Positions 602 through 48,130 of a stretch of DNA of 64,000 nucleotides are shown here, piece by piece. The position numbers and the translations under genes are program-made. Source of the stretch: Thermoplasmatota archaeon (GTDB taxonomy: Archaea; Thermoplasmatota; E2; DHVEG-1). The stretch lies in NCBI GenBank assembly GCA_038884455.1, contig JAWABU010000001.1, forward strand, positions 11,263 through 75,262. The letters are read 5' to 3'. How positions within the stretch are numbered: position 1 is the stretch's first letter; every line of letters begins with the position of its first letter. The notes below the pieces were generated by a model that saw nothing but the letters and a program-made list of their open reading frames with translations, did no database searches and was not told the DNA's origin.

Positions 602-3600
602 TTATCCTTGTAGTATCACCACGAGAATTTTCTTGATCAACACCACAGATCCAACCTGATGCTGATCTGCGTCATACAACCGTGCAGATAACTCATAAAA
701 ACCTGACGGAATACTGAGATTTACGATTGCACCATCAGAAACATTCGTATCCCAGCAGGTATACGTTTTTTTAAGAAACTGTTGCGTTGCAACAAACTCA
801 ACAGCAACAGCATTGTCAGGAATTTCTGCAGCAGCACATACTAAAACATTGAAATCAACTACAACTGCAACACCAAGACGAGTAAGCAGGTGTACGGGTC
901 CGATTTTATCATGGTTCGTAATATAAAGATACCCAATTTGATAGATCCCCTTCTCCGAACAACGCACAGTTCGACGATCAATACCCCGAAGCCCTGCCTG
1001 ATCAACACTAATCACCAAAATATCATATGTTTCTCCATACGACGCAGAAAAACTGGTGTCAAACCATTTGATTTTCTCTCCAGTATATGTTGCATTGAAC
1101 AGTATATCACTCCCACGTCTGATCTCAATGCGTTGTATCCCAGATCCAGAAGCATATTCAGTTACCGAACCATTAATTCGAATTAACCCTTGAAATACCA
1201 GTTCAGGAGGTTTCACAATTGTGACCATCGGAGGACTTCGGTCAAGCGCAATATTTGTTATCACATGATGCGGTGTTTCTTCATTCTCAGCAGTATCCTT
1301 TGACCAGTACTCAATCATATTATCAGGCCGTTCAGACGTAATAAACGGCGGGTTTGCTGGATCATACACCTTTGTCTCACCTTGGTTCATCCGATAGAAC
1401 GTCGTGATATTACTTGGAGCTGAATCATTATCAGACACCACAAACGTACATCGAATTGGTTTGGTATACCAATTATTACTCCCATCAGGAACCGCAGGGT
1501 CGAACAAAATCTGAGTATGTGGCGGTTCCATATCTGCATATCGATACCAGCTGATATTCCATGCGTCAACAACAGGTGAGCTTGTTGGTACGGAACGGGT
1601 AAGCGTTGCACGAAGTCTGCAGCTCCGCTCCGACATCGCTGATAAATCCTCACCGGGATTCACATCTGCACGTAAAACAACAGTCCCATCAGCATTCAAA
1701 ATATCAAACCGGACAACACCAACTGGAACTGTATATGCTGCAGAAAAACGATGCCAGCGAATAAACTCACTATCTGGAGTGATCACCGTTGATGTAACCA
1801 CTGCATTGGTAATCAGTTTATACTCCTCTCCAAGAGCATAACTGACAAATGGTGATCCGACCTTCTGGGTGATACTCCACACCGATCCAAATGCATCAGC
1901 ATACAATGAAACCACATCTCGCTCATCCTCCCAAATACAGAAAATATTACCCTCACCGACTGCAAGATTATTCCAATCAACATTCTGCGACGACCCATCA
2001 GTCAGCTGCACCTCAGCACCATGGATAACTCCTGAAGATGAGACAAGTTTTCCCCAAATCCCAGTACTTCCCCCAAGAATGCTATCATACGAAACAAAAA
2101 ACATACTGTTAAAAAACGGCACAACATCAGTTCGAATGTTACTCGTTCCCGGTGTTATAATAAAATTCGTGATCACTGTTGCACCATTCACATCAAGGAT
2201 TTTCCCCCAGATATTACCATCGTAACTCGAACGAACTGTAGGATCAACACTGATATCAGCATCATTCCACGTTACCAGATACCGCTGGGAAACCGGATTG
2301 TAAACAACCGCTGGGAAGATATGATCAACCGTCGAACTACCAGTAGCAATCGATATCGTTGAACCATTTTGTACTGGTTGTCCTCCAGGACCTGTTGGAG
2401 AAAAACGTCTTGCCTTCAAACTAAACGGTCCTATCTGAGGATCATACCCATCTTCATAGACAACGAAAAAATTCCCCTGTTCATCAGAACATACCCATGG
2501 ATCAGACTGACAATGCACTTCCCCAGGGGTGACACAAAACTCAACATAGGACGTCCCACTGGGAAAATAGATTTTCCCCCAGATGTCATAGTTATCAGCA
2601 CCAGCCCGTGCATCCTCCCATACAACCATAAAGCGATTCGTTCTAGCATCATAGCACACATGCGGATCATACTGCCCGCCATCAGCATTGCTACAAATTG
2701 TAAATCGCGAAAGCACGGTTCCATTGAGTGCGACAAAAGCTCCTTTGATATCTGATTTAAATCGATCAGCAATTGTTGCTGGATTTTCCTCCCAGCAGAC
2801 AAAAAATTTACCAGCGCCATATGCAATCGATGGGTTCTCTGCATGATACGAAGTATCATCAGGTCGTGAAATTCTGATATCTCCGGTTTCTTTTGGTGGC
2901 TGCGGATTTGATCCATTCACATCAAAGGTTCTACCTAGGATCACTGAAGGAAGCGAACGTTCGAGATAATAACCAAGATCCTCGGGTCCAAGTCGTTCCT
3001 CCCAAGCGGTCAGAAAACGTCCGCCGCCATAGGCAACATCTGGATCCCATGCTCCTTCATTTTCATTTTTATACGAGATCATAACATCAGGTTGCGTGAG
3101 GTCCTGCCACGTGAACACACTATTAAAATTTCCTTGATCAACCGCAGTTGGATTTCCATAAAACAAATACATCGTTATGGTTTGCTGCGGAGCGATATAT
3201 GGAATTAACACGAGGACACGTGCTGAAACACCCATAGTTCGCTCTAAAATCCAATACTCATAGGAAATTCCCTGAGCGTTTGTAAAACGAAGATCATCAT
3301 AATCAGTCTGCATGTCAGAATCATAGGGAATATTCAGCTCAAGAACATAGTTATGAAGACCAACCAACCCGGTATTTGTAATATTGATGGGACGCATTCG
3401 CGTAAACGATGGATTCGTCCAAGCTGCATACGTATTCTGCATTGTGATAACTCCTGCTGACGTATCAATTGAACAGTTTCTCGTCAAACCAACATCGATT
3501 CGACCAGTATCAAAAAAATCATCGTGCCATACAACTAAGGAACCACCACGATCCTGAAAACCTCTAGAAAGCATCGTCGTTTCCACAGATCGAATCTGGG

Positions 3601-3670
3601 CTACTGACAAAAGCATTCCCAGACTAAGGAGAACGGTACTGACAATTGTTCTGAGTTTTATTTCCCCCAT
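602..3670 (-). CDS. Large secreted protein: N-terminal DUF2341-like domain followed by at least seven tandem ~45-aa repeats (beta-propeller-like?).
   Basis: Long ORF. Probable start is Met MGEIKLRTIV... at 3670, giving a signal peptide. The segment DYDDLRFTNAQGISYEYWILE...VLVLIPYI...YLFYGNP matches the DUF2341 signature. Repeats share the pattern DP.VAY...F.VVWED....IWGK. Confidence 0.8.
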   Translation of the reverse strand: MGEIKLRTIVSTVLLSLGMLLSVAQIRSVETTMLSRGFQDRGGSLVVWHDDFFDTGRIDVGLTRNCSIDTSAGVITMQNTYAAWTNPSFTRMRPINITNTGLVGLHNYVLELNIPYDSDMQTDYDDLRFTNAQGISYEYWILERTMGVSARVLVLIPYIAPQQTITMYLFYGNPTAVDQGNFNSVFTWQDLTQPDVMISYKNENEGAWDPDVAYGGGRFLTAWEERLGPEDLGYYLERSLPSVILGRTFDVNGSNPQPPKETGDIRISRPDDTSYHAENPSIAYGAGKFFVCWEENPATIADRFKSDIKGAFVALNGTVLSRFTICSNADGGQYDPHVCYDARTNRFMVVWEDARAGADNYDIWGKIYFPSGTSYVEFCVTPGEVHCQSDPWVCSDEQGNFFVVYEDGYDPQIGPFSLKARRFSPTGPGGQPVQNGSTISIATGSSTVDHIFPAVVYNPVSQRYLVTWNDADISVDPTVRSSYDGNIWGKILDVNGATVITNFIITPGTSNIRTDVVPFFNSMFFVSYDSILGGSTGIWGKLVSSSGVIHGAEVQLTDGSSQNVDWNNLAVGEGNIFCIWEDERDVVSLYADAFGSVWSITQKVGSPFVSYALGEEYKLITNAVVTSTVITPDSEFIRWHRFSAAYTVPVGVVRFDILNADGTVVLRADVNPGEDLSAMSERSCRLRATLTRSVPTSSPVVDAWNISWYRYADMEPPHTQILFDPAVPDGSNNWYTKPIRCTFVVSDNDSAPSNITTFYRMNQGETKVYDPANPPFITSERPDNMIEYWSKDTAENEETPHHVITNIALDRSPPMVTIVKPPELVFQGLIRINGSVTEYASGSGIQRIEIRRGSDILFNATYTGEKIKWFDTSFSASYGETYDILVISVDQAGLRGIDRRTVRCSEKGIYQIGYLYITNHDKIGPVHLLTRLGVAVVVDFNVLVCAAAEIPDNAVAVEFVATQQFLKKTYTCWDTNVSDGAIVNLSIPSGFYELSARLYDADQHQVGSVVLIKKILVVILQG

Positions 3671-3713
3671 GTTTTCCTCATTCTCTTCTTTTTCAGAGAA
3701 CTGCTTAATTTTT

Positions 3714-6395
3714 TTACGGCCAGGGCACTGTATACCACTGATGTTTCCATAAGATCTGCAACGTCCAATCACCCGGCAGTGGAGTGTCACCAAGAATCCA
3801 AATACGAATCAATTGTCCATTCTGAGCATGCCATTGAATCGTCCGAGTAATATCAATAAAATTCTGACCACTCAGTCTGAATCCATACCAATAATTACCA
3901 CTCTGTGAAGGGTCAAAACCAGCCTCAAGGTTGAACTGATCACCAACCGGTTGACCAAACGTATGAATCGTCACATATCCAGTTTCCTGTAACGACCAGG
4001 TAAATTTTACCTTTCGATTTGCAAAAAACGAAACAGACCCCTGGAGTTTAAATCCTGGTGTTGTTGTGTTTACAAAAGTCACTGCAACATTTTTATTTAC
4101 CTGCAACTCCAGCATCCCTGATTCACCAATGTTCCATGTTGCGGCAATACTCAACAGATCACTATCAACATGTACCGAAATATCAACTGCATCTAAGGAA
4201 AGAATACGACCTGACCACTGCAAATTTCGAATCTGATTCCCAACCTTATCCCAAGAAATCATGAGATGATCACTGGTTTGTATCCCAAGACCAAACCTCA
4301 GCATCAGACTTCCTTGATCATGCACGGTAAGCGTAGTATACAGCAGCTGATCACCACCGGTAATCACCGAAAGAACACCATGATTGTTCTGCGCATCAGG
4401 AAGATCCCAGACAAGCTCAGTATGATTGTTTTTTAACTCCAACGTATTTGTAATTGTCCATCCTGCATGACTTACAGAAAACGTCACCGTTGGTTCGCCA
4501 CCAACTGCAGTACTCCGCATCATAGTAATATGACCTCTTCGATCAGATCGGTTGACATCCCATGCTATTTGAACAAACGTCGTACTCAGTTCAAGTGTTT
4601 TTGAAAACACCCAATCTTTGTACTGAATCGTTGTCGTAGAAAGCAATGACGCCTCAGGGCTACGTTCAAGAGTTATCATTCCCGTCCCCTGTAAAATCTT
4701 AATATCCCATGAAAGTTTTACAAATGCACATGCAAGAATAAACGTTTTTGTCACGGAAACCTCACCAAAACGCAACCCTACATCGAGCGTTCGCGGTTCA
4801 TCGTAATCCCGTACAATATGAATATATCCAGTTCCTCCTGCAACATCAATAAAACTGTCACATCGAATCATCTTTGGCACCTGCGTGATTCGCATAAACG
4901 GTTCATACACCCCAGAGAAATACAAACCAAGCTCTTCAACATCAGACGACATATTCAGTTCAGCGAAACTTTGTGCAGACAGATCACCAAGCACACCCAA
5001 TTCAAGACCCCATGCTGCATGAATGCGCTGTGGGAGATTACTGACTGCAAAACAAACAAGTGTACCATTTTGCTCTGAATCAAGGCTATAAGAGATGTCA
5101 TATGGCCGATCTGACTCATAGAGAAACTCTCGAGATCCAAGAATAGTTAAATCAAACTTCATGTAACTTGGCAACGGGTCGATCACAAATCGCTGAATAA
5201 TAGCATCAAGAATACCGCCCTCTGCACGAAATGAAATTCTTGTTGACACACCAGCGCTTTTGCCGAACTCATATGAAATGGTTGCCTGTGTAGGAACCGC
5301 GGTGATCGTAAGTTCAGTTGCAGGATCAAATTCAACAGAAAAACATCGAGAAAACACTTCATGACCCTCACCATCAACAGTCGTATACTGGGTAAAAAAC
5401 GTTACCTGGGAACCAGTCTCAAGAGAATCAGGTTGTATTATTAATCGAACAACCCGGGGATCATCAAGATGCTCTCGGCCGACAAAAAACGATGTCGTCA
5501 CCTTATTGATACCATCTCCAACCGCAGTGGATCGATACCCAATTTGCGTACTGAAAAAAGGATTATTCTTGGTATCAAGCTCACCACCGGAAAGAAGGAC
5601 AAACGGAAAACGAACCTCTAACGAAGCCTCATAATTTTTCGACGTATCACAGCTGGTTTCAAGATGAAATCTCGTTTCAATAACATTCTCAGAATTCTGT
5701 GTTATCTTTGTTCGGGTGAAACGCAGCTCAACAGCTGTATCATCTTTTGACTGCATACTTGTAAGAAAACGCTTCGTTTCACCAGTTGTAAGCATCGAGT
5801 TAAAATCAGCGATTCCGAGATTCAACGGTGTCCTAAGCGTCATACCATTATCATACCGAGTATTGATCCACACGCCAAAATCATCACGACCTATTTTGAC
5901 AAACAAGACTTTTATCAAATCGCGAGCACATTCTTGATCTTGATCATCAAAACCATACACCCGAATCGTATACAACCCAGATGAAAGCCCCAGATCCATT
6001 GAAAAACCATTAATAGTGTTATAATCCCATCGTTCAGTTTTCCACCCTGTTGCCATCTGCGTTGCCTCAAATCGTACATGATGCACATCGACTGATTCAG
6101 TGTCAATAGTAAGACTCCGACCGACAACCACAGCAAGACCAAGATGAAAGATATTCGGTAACTTCATCGGGCGAAGACGAAAAAGATACAACTGACCAGC
6201 GACAGGATATGTAATTACAAGTGATGACTGCAAACCTACGGTTGCAGATCGTTGAGATTGCACAACAATTGGTTGTTCTGGTTGATCAGAAAGCAATTCA
6301 TATTGAGTGAGATGAAAAACAGCAGCGCGATACGGCGTAGAAAACATCAAAAAAACCAAACAGAATAGTATTCCTCCTACTACCCTCTTTTTCAT
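3714..6395 (-). CDS. Large secreted hypothetical protein (893 aa) with N-terminal signal peptide.
   Basis: Long ORF on the same strand immediately upstream of the DUF2341 protein (43-nt gap). N-terminus MKKRVVGGILFCLVFLMFSTPYRAA is a typical signal peptide. No recognisable catalytic motifs. Confidence 0.75.
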   Translation of the reverse strand: MKKRVVGGILFCLVFLMFSTPYRAAVFHLTQYELLSDQPEQPIVVQSQRSATVGLQSSLVITYPVAGQLYLFRLRPMKLPNIFHLGLAVVVGRSLTIDTESVDVHHVRFEATQMATGWKTERWDYNTINGFSMDLGLSSGLYTIRVYGFDDQDQECARDLIKVLFVKIGRDDFGVWINTRYDNGMTLRTPLNLGIADFNSMLTTGETKRFLTSMQSKDDTAVELRFTRTKITQNSENVIETRFHLETSCDTSKNYEASLEVRFPFVLLSGGELDTKNNPFFSTQIGYRSTAVGDGINKVTTSFFVGREHLDDPRVVRLIIQPDSLETGSQVTFFTQYTTVDGEGHEVFSRCFSVEFDPATELTITAVPTQATISYEFGKSAGVSTRISFRAEGGILDAIIQRFVIDPLPSYMKFDLTILGSREFLYESDRPYDISYSLDSEQNGTLVCFAVSNLPQRIHAAWGLELGVLGDLSAQSFAELNMSSDVEELGLYFSGVYEPFMRITQVPKMIRCDSFIDVAGGTGYIHIVRDYDEPRTLDVGLRFGEVSVTKTFILACAFVKLSWDIKILQGTGMITLERSPEASLLSTTTIQYKDWVFSKTLELSTTFVQIAWDVNRSDRRGHITMMRSTAVGGEPTVTFSVSHAGWTITNTLELKNNHTELVWDLPDAQNNHGVLSVITGGDQLLYTTLTVHDQGSLMLRFGLGIQTSDHLMISWDKVGNQIRNLQWSGRILSLDAVDISVHVDSDLLSIAATWNIGESGMLELQVNKNVAVTFVNTTTPGFKLQGSVSFFANRKVKFTWSLQETGYVTIHTFGQPVGDQFNLEAGFDPSQSGNYWYGFRLSGQNFIDITRTIQWHAQNGQLIRIWILGDTPLPGDWTLQILWKHQWYTVPWP

Positions 6396-6614: not shown

Positions 6615-6868
<254 letters not shown>

Positions 6869-6908
6869 AATCACATGCAACCTGTTTAACGATTGAGCCA
6901 GATGATGA

Positions 6909-9820
<2,912 letters not shown>

Positions 9821-10008
9821 ATTTACGTCCAGGTTGCATATGCACCCATTACCAAACAACATCATCATTATTCTGGTAATGGAACGTTCATCGACACAAA
9901 CAACCACATGTCTAGACATGCGGCGGTCTCCGTTCTTATCAACTTATGTGCATTTCACACAAGCTGACGTTGAATTTCATGAGAGTATCTTTTTTAGGAA
10001 AATCGCAA

Positions 10009-10080
10009 TGGACCGGATGGGATTTGAACCCATGGCCTCCTGCTTGCAAAGCAGGCGATCTTCCGCTGATCTACCGGCCC
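10009..10080 (-). tRNA. tRNA-Ala (anticodon TGC) in the 16S-23S spacer
   Basis: Minus read GGGCCGGTAGATCAGCGGAAGATCGCCTGCTTTGCAAGCAGGAGGCCATGGGTTCAAATCCCATCCGGTCCA. Anticodon loop UUUGCAA. G3:U70 pair, the alanine identity element. Confidence 0.9.
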
Positions 10081-10203
10081 TTTCTATAATATAACTATCT
10101 ATATTATATTAGGAGCCGATGGAATTCAGTTACCCTTAATATAGTTTTCTTTTTGATCGACGTGCGATTTTTCAGTGTCTACTACATCTGCCGTTATTTT
10201 CGT

Positions 10204-11672
<1,469 letters not shown>

Positions 11673-12166: not shown

Positions 12167-12659
12167 TTATAGATATTGAATAACTTCTGTTATCCGAGGA
12201 TTACGGATACCTTGTCGTCGTATTGGCACAATGGTTTCAAGGAGCTGAAGTTCTGAAGCATATCCCTGAAAACGATCGTTAAACCGTTCAACAAATCGTT
12301 TTGCTGTGACGATACTATCTGCTTGGAAGGTAAAAATGCCGTCAACACATCCATGAACATATTCAATGTTTTCAATGCGGATTTGTCCAGGTGGGAGAAG
12401 ATCATCTAACTGTGTGTTCATAATTTCATTGAGTACTTTATCATCAAGTGGCTTTGTCGTTCTTTTCATTAGCATGATAAAATGTTTTCTTTCAGAATAC
12501 TCGTCGTCGACCACGGCAGAATATCCCCAAATGACTTTTTCTCGTTCCAGTTTTTTAATGATACGCCATACTTTCTGATGTGAAAATTTACATTTTTTTG
12601 CGATGACATCAATGCTTTCTTTCGCCTCAGTTTGAAGAACATCAAGTACTTTTTTTCAT
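12167..12659 (-). CDS. Lrp/AsnC-family transcriptional regulator. The reading frame is broken by a frameshift in an A7 tract directly after the start codon, so this is a possible pseudogene, sequencing error or slippage site.
   Basis: ATG at 12659-12657 is followed by AAAAAAA. With one fewer A the frame reads MKKVLDVLQTEAKESIDVIAKKCKFSHQKVWRIIKKLEREKVIWGYSAVVDDEY... (HTH_AsnC plus RAM domain, continuous to the stop at 12167). As sequenced, ATG AAA AAA AGT ACT TGA stops. The ORF track recovers only the downstream 115 aa from the GTG at 12514. Confidence 0.6.
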
Positions 12660-12727
12660 CTTGATGTATCTGTCTACTACTACTTCGTCCCATATATTTT
12701 CCCCACGATTTCGTTTTTGGAACAGTA

Positions 12728-12799
12728 TGGACTGGGCGGGATTTGAACCCGCGGCCTCCGCCTTGCGAAGGCGGCGATCTTCCGCTGATCTACCAGCCC
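12728..12799 (-). tRNA. tRNA-Ala (anticodon CGC)
   Basis: Minus read GGGCTGGTAGATCAGCGGAAGATCGCCGCCTTCGCAAGGCGGAGGCCGCGGGTTCAAATCCCGCCCAGTCCA. Anticodon loop UUCGCAA. G3:U70 present. Confidence 0.85.
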
Positions 12800-33049: not shown

Positions 33050-33985
33050 GTGAAAGCAAATCATAAATTCCAATCTTCTACTTCTGCGGTTTCAGAGGTG
33101 ATCGGTGTTATTCTCATGGTTGCCATCACCGTAACGATCGCTGCAGTTATTTATCTCTATGTCAGTGGTATTCTTGGAAGTTCATCAAGCAGTATCAATA
33201 GTTCTTGGAAAACACTGCAAGACCAGTTAGACAAACTCCGTGGCGGAGATTATTACAATTCCCAAGGAGGCCCAGATGGTCCTGGTGGTGCAGTACCTGC
33301 CGGTGGTTCTGACAACCCCGGGGGTGATTCTGATCTCACCCCCGATGATCCTGATGATGGTGTATGGTCTGACACTCTCCTAATCTCAGATCCAAATCCA
33401 AAAGACAATGAAATCGTTGAATATTCTGAAAGTATTACGTTTAGTGTGTATATCACACATGCTACAGAAGACGAAGATGGCAATATTTACTATGAAATCA
33501 GCTGTTCAAATGGAGAATCAACCAGTCAAACAAATGTCAACAGCGGCCGATACTCACTTCAACTAACGAAACTACAACCTTCAACCATCTACCGGATATC
33601 TATTATTGCAATTAACATGTTGAATGGAAGATCAACCACTGCTGAGTATCAATTTCAAACTACGGCACAACCACAACCACCACGACTTGGTGAACCGAAT
33701 ATTCCTGATTATGCAAAAAATCAACCATTGTCCTTAACCTGGAGCATCCCCATAAGTGATGATGACAGCTTGTTTAGCTGGAGTATCGAAGTGCGAAGTG
33801 CAAAAGGTCAAACGTTTACTGAAAGTGCTACCAATGATATTTCAGGTATTAAATCAATCACACTGAAAAATCTTGCAGAAACAACAGAGTATACTGTGAC
33901 GGTTACTGCAACTGATGAAAGCATGCTTGGAGCTATCGGTTTTTATCACTTTACAACAGGAAAATCTGGAGAGATCGAAAAATAA
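33050..33985 (+). CDS. Archaeal type IV pilin-like protein (class III signal peptide, DUF1628/PilA-like N-terminal domain) with a large C-terminal domain.
   Basis: STSAVSEVIGVILMVAITVTIAAVIYLYVSG is the conserved pilin hydrophobic domain. 311 aa. Gly/Pro/Asp-rich linker. Confidence 0.75.
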   Translation: MKANHKFQSSTSAVSEVIGVILMVAITVTIAAVIYLYVSGILGSSSSSINSSWKTLQDQLDKLRGGDYYNSQGGPDGPGGAVPAGGSDNPGGDSDLTPDDPDDGVWSDTLLISDPNPKDNEIVEYSESITFSVYITHATEDEDGNIYYEISCSNGESTSQTNVNSGRYSLQLTKLQPSTIYRISIIAINMLNGRSTTAEYQFQTTAQPQPPRLGEPNIPDYAKNQPLSLTWSIPISDDDSLFSWSIEVRSAKGQTFTESATNDISGIKSITLKNLAETTEYTVTVTATDESMLGAIGFYHFTTGKSGEIEK

Positions 33986-42678: not shown

Positions 42679-43185
42679 ATGAAAGCAAATAGAAAATTTA
42701 TAGATGGTGAGGAAGCAGTATCTGCGGTTATTGGTGTTATCCTCATGGTAGCAATTACCGTCGCCATAGCCGCAACCGTCTACGTCTACGTCAGCGGAAT
42801 GATGGACGTCAGTGGTGGATCTGCACCAGTTGCAGTCATCAACATCAACGATGGAGTAGCCACAGCAAGTTCTACAACAGGAACGTACAGTGCCAACGAT
42901 GAAGTATTTGTATTATTCCATTATAGTGGTGACACCATTCCAATGGCAGATGTCGTAATTGAATATATGGGTGGAGCTGTCACTTCATGGGATACACTCA
43001 TTGGATCAACAACAACCGGTGGACTAACTGCTGCCGCTCCAGCAGATGGTTTCTTCCAATTTGGTGATGAAATCGTTGTTAAAGCAGTTGATGCTAACAC
43101 CCAAGCAGGTGTGTATACTTTCCGCATCCGTCATAACCCAACAAGTTCATGGGTCATGCCAGCGAAAACCGCAACTGCTGTTTAA
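42679..43185 (+). CDS. Archaeal type IV pilin (class III signal peptide, PilA/DUF1628-like).
   Basis: MKANRKFIDGEEAVSAVIGVILMVAITVAIAATVYVYVSG resembles my recollection of the conserved haloarchaeal PilA hydrophobic domain GVSPVIGVILMVAITV (from memory, not searched). 168 aa. Confidence 0.8.
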   Translation: MKANRKFIDGEEAVSAVIGVILMVAITVAIAATVYVYVSGMMDVSGGSAPVAVININDGVATASSTTGTYSANDEVFVLFHYSGDTIPMADVVIEYMGGAVTSWDTLIGSTTTGGLTAAAPADGFFQFGDEIVVKAVDANTQAGVYTFRIRHNPTSSWVMPAKTATAV

Positions 43186-43302
43186 ACACCATACTAACCA
43201 CAATCTCAACTCTTTTTCTTCCTTTTTTCTCTAAAATCTTTTTAGAGTCTAAAACAAAATACAAAATCAATGAATCAAAAAAAATATGGGGATGGGGTAT
43301 AC

Positions 43303-43797
43303 ATGAAAAAACCATGCAAAAAAAAACTTAATCAAGAAGCAGTATCTGCAGTCATCGGTGTCACTATCATGGTTGCAATTACTGTCGCCATGGCTGCAGT
43401 AGCATATACCTATCTTACCGGTATGATTGGAGGCGAAACACCAACCCCAGTTGCATCGTTTAATATCAAAGATGGAACCGCAAATGCAAATGCTATGACT
43501 AATCTTTATAATGCTAATGATCAAGTTTTTATCATCGAACATTACAGCGGAGATACCATCACAACTAGTGAAATAACCATAGAATATAAAAGCCCAACAG
43601 GTACTTGGCAAACCCTCACCAGCACAGGACAAGCAGCTGGACTCAAAGCAACTATTCCCGCACATTTACAATTCGGCGATACTATCTCAGTAACCGCTGT
43701 CGATGCTAACACCAGAAATGGTGTGTATTTATTTCGCATCCGTCACAATCCCTCAGAAACATATCTGTTGCCTCAGATAGAAGCAACCGCTATATAA
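43303..43797 (+). CDS. Archaeal type IV pilin, tandem paralogue.
   Basis: Start MKKPCKKKLNQEAVSAVIGVTIMVAITVAMAAVAYTYLTG. C-terminal region parallels the upstream pilin (YSGDTI..., FRIRHNP...). Confidence 0.8.
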   Translation: MKKPCKKKLNQEAVSAVIGVTIMVAITVAMAAVAYTYLTGMIGGETPTPVASFNIKDGTANANAMTNLYNANDQVFIIEHYSGDTITTSEITIEYKSPTGTWQTLTSTGQAAGLKATIPAHLQFGDTISVTAVDANTRNGVYLFRIRHNPSETYLLPQIEATAI

Positions 43798-47357: not shown

Positions 47358-47783
47358 ATGGATACAGAAAGGCGTGATCGATACAAGGATAAGCTTGAAC
47401 TCATTGAAAAAAGACTCCAAGAAATAGAAGAGTGGACAAACATATCCTCGCAAGAGTTTATCTCAGATGAAAAAACGAAACTCGCAACATATAAAGCGTT
47501 TCAAGAACTAGCAGAATCCTGTATGGATATCGTTGCAATGGCATGTAAAGATTTAAAAATTCTGCCGAAAGATGATTACACCAATGTCGAAAAACTTAGT
47601 CAAAAACTGAACATCAATAAACGAATGCTCCAAGAAATAAACGGACTTAGAAATAGGTTGATTCATCGATACAACAGCACTGATGATACCGTAGCTTTTG
47701 AGAGTATCCACGAGCTAATGATAGAAATCAATACATTTATAGACGTGATTAAACGATGGATAAAAAAATCATTAAAAAAATAA
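47358..47783 (+). CDS. hepT: HEPN-domain toxin, HepT/DUF86 family.
   Basis: Rx4HxY motif (RNRLIHRY) near the C-terminus. 141 aa. Confidence 0.75.
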   Translation: MDTERRDRYKDKLELIEKRLQEIEEWTNISSQEFISDEKTKLATYKAFQELAESCMDIVAMACKDLKILPKDDYTNVEKLSQKLNINKRMLQEINGLRNRLIHRYNSTDDTVAFESIHELMIEINTFIDVIKRWIKKSLKK

Positions 47784-48130
47784 AAAACGATTTCTCACCA
47801 TTCCACAATAGAGTATTGGGCATAGTACTCTATGGCTCACACCAGAAAAGAACTCAGACAGCTCGGAGCGACATCGATATCTGTATTATAGCCCCCGGTG
47901 AAAATCACAAAAGACTGTTTAAAGAGATGCTTCCCCTCAACTATGACATTAAGATTTTTGAAACAATGCCGCTCTTTCTAAAAATACAAGTTATTCACCA
48001 TCATAAGATACTGTATACAAAAGATCGATATGCACTCTACGAGTATTTCTATATTTTTAGAAAACTCTGGAATGATCAAAAAGAAAGACAGCGTCTCACT
48101 AAAAAAGAAGCACTCTACCTCTTTAGTTAA
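47756..48130 (+). CDS. mntA: Minimal nucleotidyltransferase (MNT) antitoxin partner of HepT.
   Basis: GSx10DxD motif (LYGSHQKRTQTARSDIDICII). 124 aa. 28-nt overlap with hepT. Confidence 0.75.
   Translation: MDKKIIKKIKNDFSPFHNRVLGIVLYGSHQKRTQTARSDIDICIIAPGENHKRLFKEMLPLNYDIKIFETMPLFLKIQVIHHHKILYTKDRYALYEYFYIFRKLWNDQKERQRLTKKEALYLFS

Follow-up and report, generated by a model that had tools for sequence, protein, structure and literature searches.

One A missing from a homopolymer interrupts the assembled gene of a predicted Lrp/AsnC-type regulator in a Thermoplasmatota archaeon

The interrupted gene and its corrected model

The stretch of DNA analysed here, a window of 64,000 nucleotides from an assembly of an uncultivated Thermoplasmatota (contig JAWABU010000001.1), is archaeal and carries a 16S-tRNAAla(UGC)-23S-5S operon at 6727-11671 on the minus strand. 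The gene under study lies between this operon and a gene for tRNA-Ala(CGC), downstream of the genes for GAPDH, a DUF5654 protein, and PGK. The order PGK, tRNA-Ala(CGC), regulator persists in relatives with as little as 68% protein identity, and in the window the rRNA operon follows. The same tRNA gene is also found upstream of the regulator in three related loci, namely L161 (2830-3000), L163 (312-432), and L164 (about 5890-6000). A co-transcript of tRNA and mRNA is a possibility, as is a functional connection with the rRNA operon, which lies about 500 nt downstream. The 5S rRNA gene is adjoined by two very large open reading frames of 1063 and 893 amino acids (602-3793 and 3714-6395, minus strand), which share about 80 nt when the longest ORFs are listed. 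For the 893-aa product, no Pfam match is recorded in the sibling, where the gene is truncated by the end of the locus.

Read directly, the minus strand from 12659 to 12642 gives ATG AAA AAA AGT ACT TGA, within the local context ...CAA GAT GAA AAA AAG TAC TTG ATG.... Both this reading and the A7 run in it had been reported in an earlier note, which took the ATG at 12659 for the start of an Lrp/AsnC-type regulator gene that was broken by a one-base insertion. Homologues and a sister genome agree that such a gene is present and that it carries a single-base frame error in an A homopolymer close to its 5' end. They place both the start of the gene and the direction of the error differently.

A database search with the repaired protein of 163 amino acids as a query returned 58 homologues, the best of them with E = 5e-82. 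Nearly all are 175 amino acids long, which leaves the query 12 residues shorter, and their N-termini follow the pattern M-[AGPS]-K-S-S-x-Q-Q-[LI]-x-x-D-E-K-K-[VI]-L-x-V-L-Q. This N-terminus is encoded upstream of position 12659, and the real start is therefore the ATG at 12693-12691, 12 codons earlier, while the ATG at 12659 is an out-of-frame overlap of the codons GAT GAA. When the first 15 codons, read in the upstream frame, are joined to the downstream frame, the result is a protein of 175 amino acids that aligns with the family from end to end. Since a conserved protein family is encoded by both flanking frames, the break is not a chance pattern. In addition to the residues given in Table 1, M1 and K3 are nearly invariant across the alignment of the regulator family.

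To pass from one frame to the other the reading must shift by -1, so that the tract is one A short and does not contain one A too many. The intact homologues with the sequence DEKKV read GAT GAA AAA AAA GTx, and the single gap in the pairwise alignment with the sister locus L164 falls within the A-run. As read from the assembled letters, the lesion is shown by these comparisons to be a one-nucleotide deletion in an A8 tract encoding E13-K14-K15 (GAA AAA AAA to GAA AAA AA-). The proposed insertion thus gives way to a deletion, the intact state being A8 in a sister genome that is 99% identical.

The GTG-initiated ORF of 115 amino acids is the sole entry of the ORF list for the downstream frame, which ends with a TAA at 12169-12167. 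The earlier note was right to this extent, and it overlooked the 74-aa ORF at 12469..12693(-), which opens with MGRSSSRQIHQDEKK and then leaves the native frame (YLMFF...). This zero-frame product contains neither the winged helix-turn-helix nor the C-terminal domain. Removal of one A had been expected to give a protein of 164 amino acids; the computed length is 163, and the product is non-native. The model with a start at 12659, one A deleted, and 163 residues was consequently rejected, given homologues of 175 residues, an N-terminus encoded upstream, and a sibling with A8. It was the comparison with orthologues, which the earlier note had itself named as a possible refutation, that revealed the upstream start and overturned its start model. 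Reads uniformly showing A6, suggested there as the sign of an intact gene, would represent the wrong length, as the intact allele is A8.

Table 1. Features of the regulator locus (positions in the window)
Feature	Position	Strand	Remarks
tRNA-Ala(CGC)	12728..12799	-	ends 34 nt upstream of the true start of the regulator
True start codon ATG of the 175-aa regulator	12691..12693	-	N-terminus aligns with 50+ homologues; identical to the intact sister protein P0059
Codons 1-15, MGRSSSRQIHQDEKK, upstream frame	12649..12693	-	family-wide, D12 is invariant and E13 and K15 nearly so
74-aa ORF carrying the true start	12469..12693	-	crosses the A-run; ORF list
Out-of-frame mini-ORF ATG AAA AAA AGT ACT TGA	12642..12659	-	t-ATG-a overlap inside GAT GAA (D12 E13)
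A7 homopolymer, lesion site	12650..12656	-	length exactly 7; intact allele A8 (GAA AAA AAA = E13 K14 K15)
A_AAA_AAG in the zero frame (GA[A AAA AAG]), formal X_XXY_YYZ -1 slippery heptamer	12649..12655	-	created by the deletion
Winged helix-turn-helix, residues about 14-55	12530..12654	-	Pfam, PDB profile matches, AlphaFold2 model
Codons 16-175 and stop (VLDVLQ...VIQYL*), -1 frame	12167..12649	-	open, without a second lesion
Second A7 run of the gene (GCA AAA AAA TGT = AKKC)	12593..12599	-	intact here; L165 has a 1-nt deletion at the homologous run
GTG-initiated 115-aa ORF, remnant without the HTH	12167..12514	-	GenBank hypothetical protein QXL17_00080, MEM4257538.1
C-terminal beta-alpha-beta-beta-alpha-beta (RAM-like) domain, residues 70-153	12236..12487	-	AlphaFold2 model, Foldseek
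Upstream-frame stop codon	12469..12471	-	unless the frame changes, a 74-aa peptide results, 15 residues of it native

Domains and family of the predicted regulator

The lesion is located at the start of the first helix of the winged helix-turn-helix. This domain is recognized by the Pfam model HTH_24 over residues 14-55 with 27.5 bits (cut-off 21.9); the HTH_AsnC-type model reaches 17.1 bits, under its cut-off of 27, and the Pfam RAM domain PF01037 gives no match at E <= 0.1. When a profile of the family is compared with the PDB, Lrp/AsnC chains align from residue 13-14 onwards, in the case of 3i4p over residues 13-138, and further matches include ST1022, LrpA, FL11, and the Lrp of E. coli. 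The AlphaFold2 model (pLDDT 83.5) places N-terminal helices at residues 3-23, 28-35, and 39-51, and the top 40 Foldseek matches in the PDB are all full-length Lrp/AsnC regulators with both domains aligned. None of the NCBIfam equivalogs LrpA1, LysM, Lrp, LrpA, and AsnC was reached, the best score, that for LrpA1, being 34.5 bits where the cut-off is 250. The protein therefore has the N-terminal winged helix-turn-helix and the C-terminal RAM-type domain expected of an Lrp/AsnC regulator, without being the equivalent of a named one.

The known members of the Lrp/AsnC set (feast/famine regulatory proteins, FFRP) used for comparison were LrpA from Pyrococcus furiosus (1i1g), FL11 from Pyrococcus (1ri7/2e1c), ST1022/Grp from Sulfolobus tokodaii (2e7w), 3i4p from Agrobacterium tumefaciens, and Lrp from E. 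coli (2gqq). Like these proteins, the predicted regulator consists of a winged helix-turn-helix followed by a beta-alpha-beta-beta-alpha-beta effector and oligomerisation domain, and the structures match over some 150-160 columns with a probability of 1.0. Unlike them, it carries about 12 additional conserved residues at its N-terminus (MxKSSxQQxxxD) as well as a C-terminal helix (residues 168-174), and the identity amounts to only 11-23%. On the basis of the profiles and the structure model, the predicted regulator is a member of a divergent, multi-paralogue Thermoplasmatota subfamily of Lrp/AsnC with an N-terminal extension of 12 residues.

Among the best matches there are 4-5 copies of the family per Thermoplasmatota genome. 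Such sets of paralogues are formed by L001, L028, L029, and L034 (JADBLO), by L043, L049, L053, L077, and L080 (JALHTX), and by L010, L032, L044, and L055 (JBFYMQ). Across the family, the N-terminal MxKSSxQQ is conserved, and W56-G57-Y58, G115, and D118 are invariant.

The homologous site in a sister genome and across the family

The 90% cluster of the 115-aa product MEM4257538.1 has one other member, P0059 (MEM0466628.1), an 'Lrp/AsnC family transcriptional regulator' of 175 amino acids. It is identical to the reconstructed protein at 174 of 175 positions, the sole difference being T170K. In the corresponding DNA (JAVYLX010000009.1, locus L164) the sequence is GATGAAAAAAAAGTACTT, in which A8 stands against the A7 of the window. 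The two copies of the regulator gene differ by five synonymous changes and one non-synonymous change, and no second lesion is found. With no second lesion and so few differences between the strains, any inactivation would be recent.

The sister MAG is DPZ-2_202101_bins_26 from a Tengchong hot spring, assigned to Thermoplasmatota, class E2, order and family DHVEG-1, with a size of 1.70 Mb and 39% GC (PMC11094006). Its dataset was produced by Illumina HiSeq 2x150 sequencing and SPAdes assembly (PMC11770067). Exact look-ups of the 115-, 74-, 163-, and 175-aa products returned only the record of the window itself and the intact sibling, so that the A7 allele has been observed once; within the 90% cluster of the 115-aa product, too, A7 occurs in no other assembly.

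Over 12.5 kb around the gene, the window and the sister are 99.5% identical, with 53 mismatches and eight indel sites. Seven of these sites are intergenic and the eighth is the A7/A8 tract. A further 20.6 kb shared with the sister is 98.5% identical (301 mismatches), and each of its indels either precedes a true start, follows a stop, or falls among the final few codons of a gene with a pilin domain. The A7/A8 difference is the sole gene-breaking indel across the 33 kb that both genomes share.

The pilin-domain gene just mentioned encodes a surface protein with fn3-like features, and several small indels in its last codons (33967-33985 on the plus strand, against 13990-14004 in L167) result in products of 311 and 306 amino acids; this is the only variation in the length of a coding end between the strains in the 33 kb. 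Elsewhere in the window, two adjacent genes on the plus strand (42679-43185 and 43270-43797) encode proteins of 168 and 175 amino acids with an archaeal type IV pilin N-terminal domain. The second, though also 175 residues long, is a pilin and not a paralogue of the regulator.

The homologous site was extracted from 160 related loci, taken from reference genomes and metagenomes, and 159 of them are in frame there. The closest relatives with DNA available are L163, L161, and L164; P0001 (80% identical) was outside the DNA comparison. The site is intact both in L163 (79% amino acid identity and the same upstream tRNA-Ala), where it reads GAA AAA AAG GTG, and in L161 (68% amino acid identity and the same order of GAPDH, DUF5654, PGK, tRNAAla, and regulator), where it reads GAA ATA AAA GTT.

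The length of the A-run varies with the codons used. The sequence DEKKV is spelled GAT GAA AAA AAA GTx, giving A8, and DEKKI gives A9, while in many loci the run is broken by AAG, CAA, ATA, or another codon. In the 42 family loci with an in-frame E-K-K, the longest A-run is A2-A4 in 11 cases, A6 in two, A7 in 14, A8 in ten, and A9 in five; other loci have codons for Q, I, or E within the motif. In the window, AAA makes up 82% of the Lys codons and GAA 71% of the Glu codons, and among the EKK tripeptides of its other genes the spelling GAA AAA AAA is the most frequent (7/15). The A-tract at codons 13-15 is thus explained by codon usage, Glu-Lys-Lys being spelled GAA AAA AAA in this AT-rich genome.

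Broken copies are rare in the family, and most of them are homopolymer indels. L005 (MAG MFD00709.bin.2.100, about 2990-3010) has A8, whereas L001 and L083 have A9, and is out of frame. L162, a MEGAHIT contig of 634 nt, has A10 instead of A9 (positions 21-45) and is likewise out of frame; its product P0011 was called as a protein of 164 amino acids starting at the same false ATG. L165 (CAZCHL010000467.1, 950-1040) shows two 1-nt deletions, one shortening the A7 of the AKKC run to A6 and the other in the G-run of IWGY. In L166 (Ga0373625_0358298, 1030-1040) an in-frame TGA replaces a Lys codon (KK*LE). The motif GAT GAA AAA AAA is a recurrent trap for gene callers.

Origin and consequences of the A7 allele

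A sequencing error, a real pseudogene, and a slippage-prone tract had been put forward as candidate causes in the earlier note, and these three are the correct set to weigh. The leading explanation, to which about an even chance is given, is a genuine and very recent slipped-strand deletion in one strain, leaving a null or leaky allele. According to this explanation, a slipped-strand replication error would have dropped one A from the A8 tract in the strain or population behind the window assembly. Ribosomes initiating at 12693 would then produce a nonsense peptide of 74 amino acids, and the regulator would be lost or strongly reduced. Unprogrammed -1 slippage on A_AAA_AAG, or stuttering of the RNA polymerase, might supply full-length protein to the extent of a few percent at the very most, and such a low-level, unprogrammed rescue is plausible.

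Measured against what defines a frameshifted pseudogene, the gene has the disabling lesion, a 1-nt deletion between codons 1-15 and codons 16-175. Signs of decay are missing: a second lesion is not found, and the comparison with the sibling gives five synonymous differences to one non-synonymous. If it is a pseudogene, the regulator gene would hence be a very young one. The case also fits, with no notable difference, the class of 'fs-genes' and frameshift pseudogenes, in which an indel in an A-run creates a frame transition between the two halves of a conserved protein (PMC3812077; GeneTack survey, PMC3711429). Homonucleotide runs are hotspots both for indels and for their low-level bypass (PMC3812077).

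The main rival to a genuine deletion is an artefact of sequencing or assembly, in which the organism would truly have A8 and an intact gene and the consensus would have lost one A. This is a possible though less likely origin. The lesion lies within a homopolymer, where indel errors classically arise; the remainder of the gene is flawless and bears the pattern of purifying selection; and another assembly of the same species has A8, with A7 appearing in one assembly only. The clean downstream frame and the 5:1 excess of synonymous changes are equally expected from an assembly error in a functional gene. L005, one of the other broken copies, belongs to a MAG whose contigs are named 'contig_N' and which may be a long-read assembly.

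Against an artefact, the 68 other A/T runs of 7-9 nt within the intact long ORFs of the window (50 of A/T7, 15 of A/T8, and three of A/T9) show no such break, and every other coding homopolymer agrees between both assemblies over the 33 kb. As these runs are intact elsewhere, the assembly is not generally unreliable at homopolymers, and the break is a single exceptional event. Furthermore, the related dataset, to which the window MAG presumably belongs, was obtained with Illumina reads and SPAdes --careful, for which consensus errors at A8 are rare.

A search of the window for other genes split at a homopolymer found none, the 25 candidate junctions being ordinary gene boundaries. One overlapping pair of ORFs considered as a split gene (47358-47783 and 47756-48130) turned out to be a HepT/MNT toxin-antitoxin pair. 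At this locus (47358-48130, plus strand), a HepT-like RNase of 141 amino acids and an MNT-type nucleotidyltransferase of 124 amino acids are encoded with an overlap of 28 nt across two A7 runs. They form a toxin-antitoxin pair of type VII in which the gene for the toxin precedes.

A third explanation is phase variation, in which the tract near the 5' end would act as a contingency tract, switching between A8 (ON) and A7 (OFF) by slipped-strand mispairing, reversibly and within populations. This seems improbable. In its favour, strains that are about 99% identical differ in the length of exactly this tract (A7 against A8 at 99.5% local identity, in two genomes only), codons 13-15 are a typical position for a contingency tract, and the homologous tract is out of frame in two further lineages (L005 and L162). 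On the other side, the length of the tract is within the prediction from codon usage, it is broken up in many orthologues (AAG, CAA, ATA), and nothing points to selection for its upkeep; moreover, 159 of the 160 loci are in frame, and the species provides just two observations.

The resemblance to bacterial contingency loci consists of a homopolymer close to the 5' end and a one-base difference between close strains that would correspond to ON (A8) and OFF (A7). The tract differs from them in being short, in being explained by codon usage, and in showing no sign of being maintained by selection. In other words, a polymorphism in tract length between genomes is found, but not the maintenance of a tract beyond composition and codon usage. 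Phase-variable poly-A and poly-G tracts of bacteria are typically longer than A8, and to our knowledge phase variation through homopolymers has not been established in archaea. The earlier suggestion of phase variation thus retains a minimal support in the different tract lengths of the two strains, while the tract itself is what codon usage predicts. Taken together, the readings in which the A7/A8 tract is a functional switch, either through phase variation of the regulator or through expression of the A7 allele by -1 frameshifting on A_AAA_AAG, are quite improbable. If true, this would be a rare archaeal case of regulator control based on a homopolymer.

The weakest explanation is programmed recoding, by which full-length regulator would be produced from the A7 allele through -1 ribosomal frameshifting, of the kind exemplified by dnaX, or through transcriptional slippage adding an A, its level being tuned by the efficiency of frameshifting. 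At the frame junction, the zero frame does contain a canonical heptamer, and a tandem -1 slip on A_AAA_AAG would yield exactly the conserved protein of 175 amino acids, with QIHQDEKKVLDVLQTEAK as the trans-frame junction peptide and QIHQDEKKYLMFFK as the zero-frame one. Archaeal -1 frameshifting on an A-rich heptamer has been demonstrated experimentally for fucA1 from Sulfolobus solfataricus, where it takes place at A-AAA-AAT, next to a putative stem-loop, with an efficiency of 5% in E. coli (PMC1616953), and frameshifting indels in homonucleotide runs, 8A included, are often partly bypassed (PMC3812077). Like fucA1, the regulator gene is an archaeal gene divided into two ORFs, in which tandem slippage by -1 at an A-rich X_XXY_YYZ heptamer would restore the full-length protein. 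Unlike fucA1, which has a putative stem-loop, rare codons, and a heptamer proven to be necessary, it has no such structure and an intact allele in the same species, and its case is made from sequence.

Within the 90 nt downstream, a search limited to pseudoknot-free folds found no frameshift-stimulating structure: the folding energy is -13.2 kcal/mol (z = 0.05), and 104 of 200 shuffled sequences fold at least as well. The arrangement in two frames is not conserved either, since the sister and 159 of the 160 loci are in frame, and the heptamer is most simply a by-product of an A8 tract losing one A. As for transcriptional slippage, it becomes evident from runs of roughly 9 nt in many bacteria (PMC1088944), a length that the A7 run does not attain, although the threshold of the archaeal RNA polymerase may be different. 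Programmed recoding is accordingly very improbable.

The main value of these observations resides in the corrected gene model, in which a regulator of the Lrp/AsnC type with 175 amino acids, minus one A, replaces a 'hypothetical protein' of 115 amino acids without the HTH. They also illustrate a general trap in AT-rich genomes, where GAT GAA AAA AAA produces both a false ATG and a hotspot for indels. Whether a recent mutation or an assembly slip, the loss of one A would in either case be an ordinary event that involves no new mechanism. If the A7 allele is real and polymorphic within populations, it would point to loss or switching of a regulator at the level of strains in hot-spring Thermoplasmatota, which would be of modest ecological interest.
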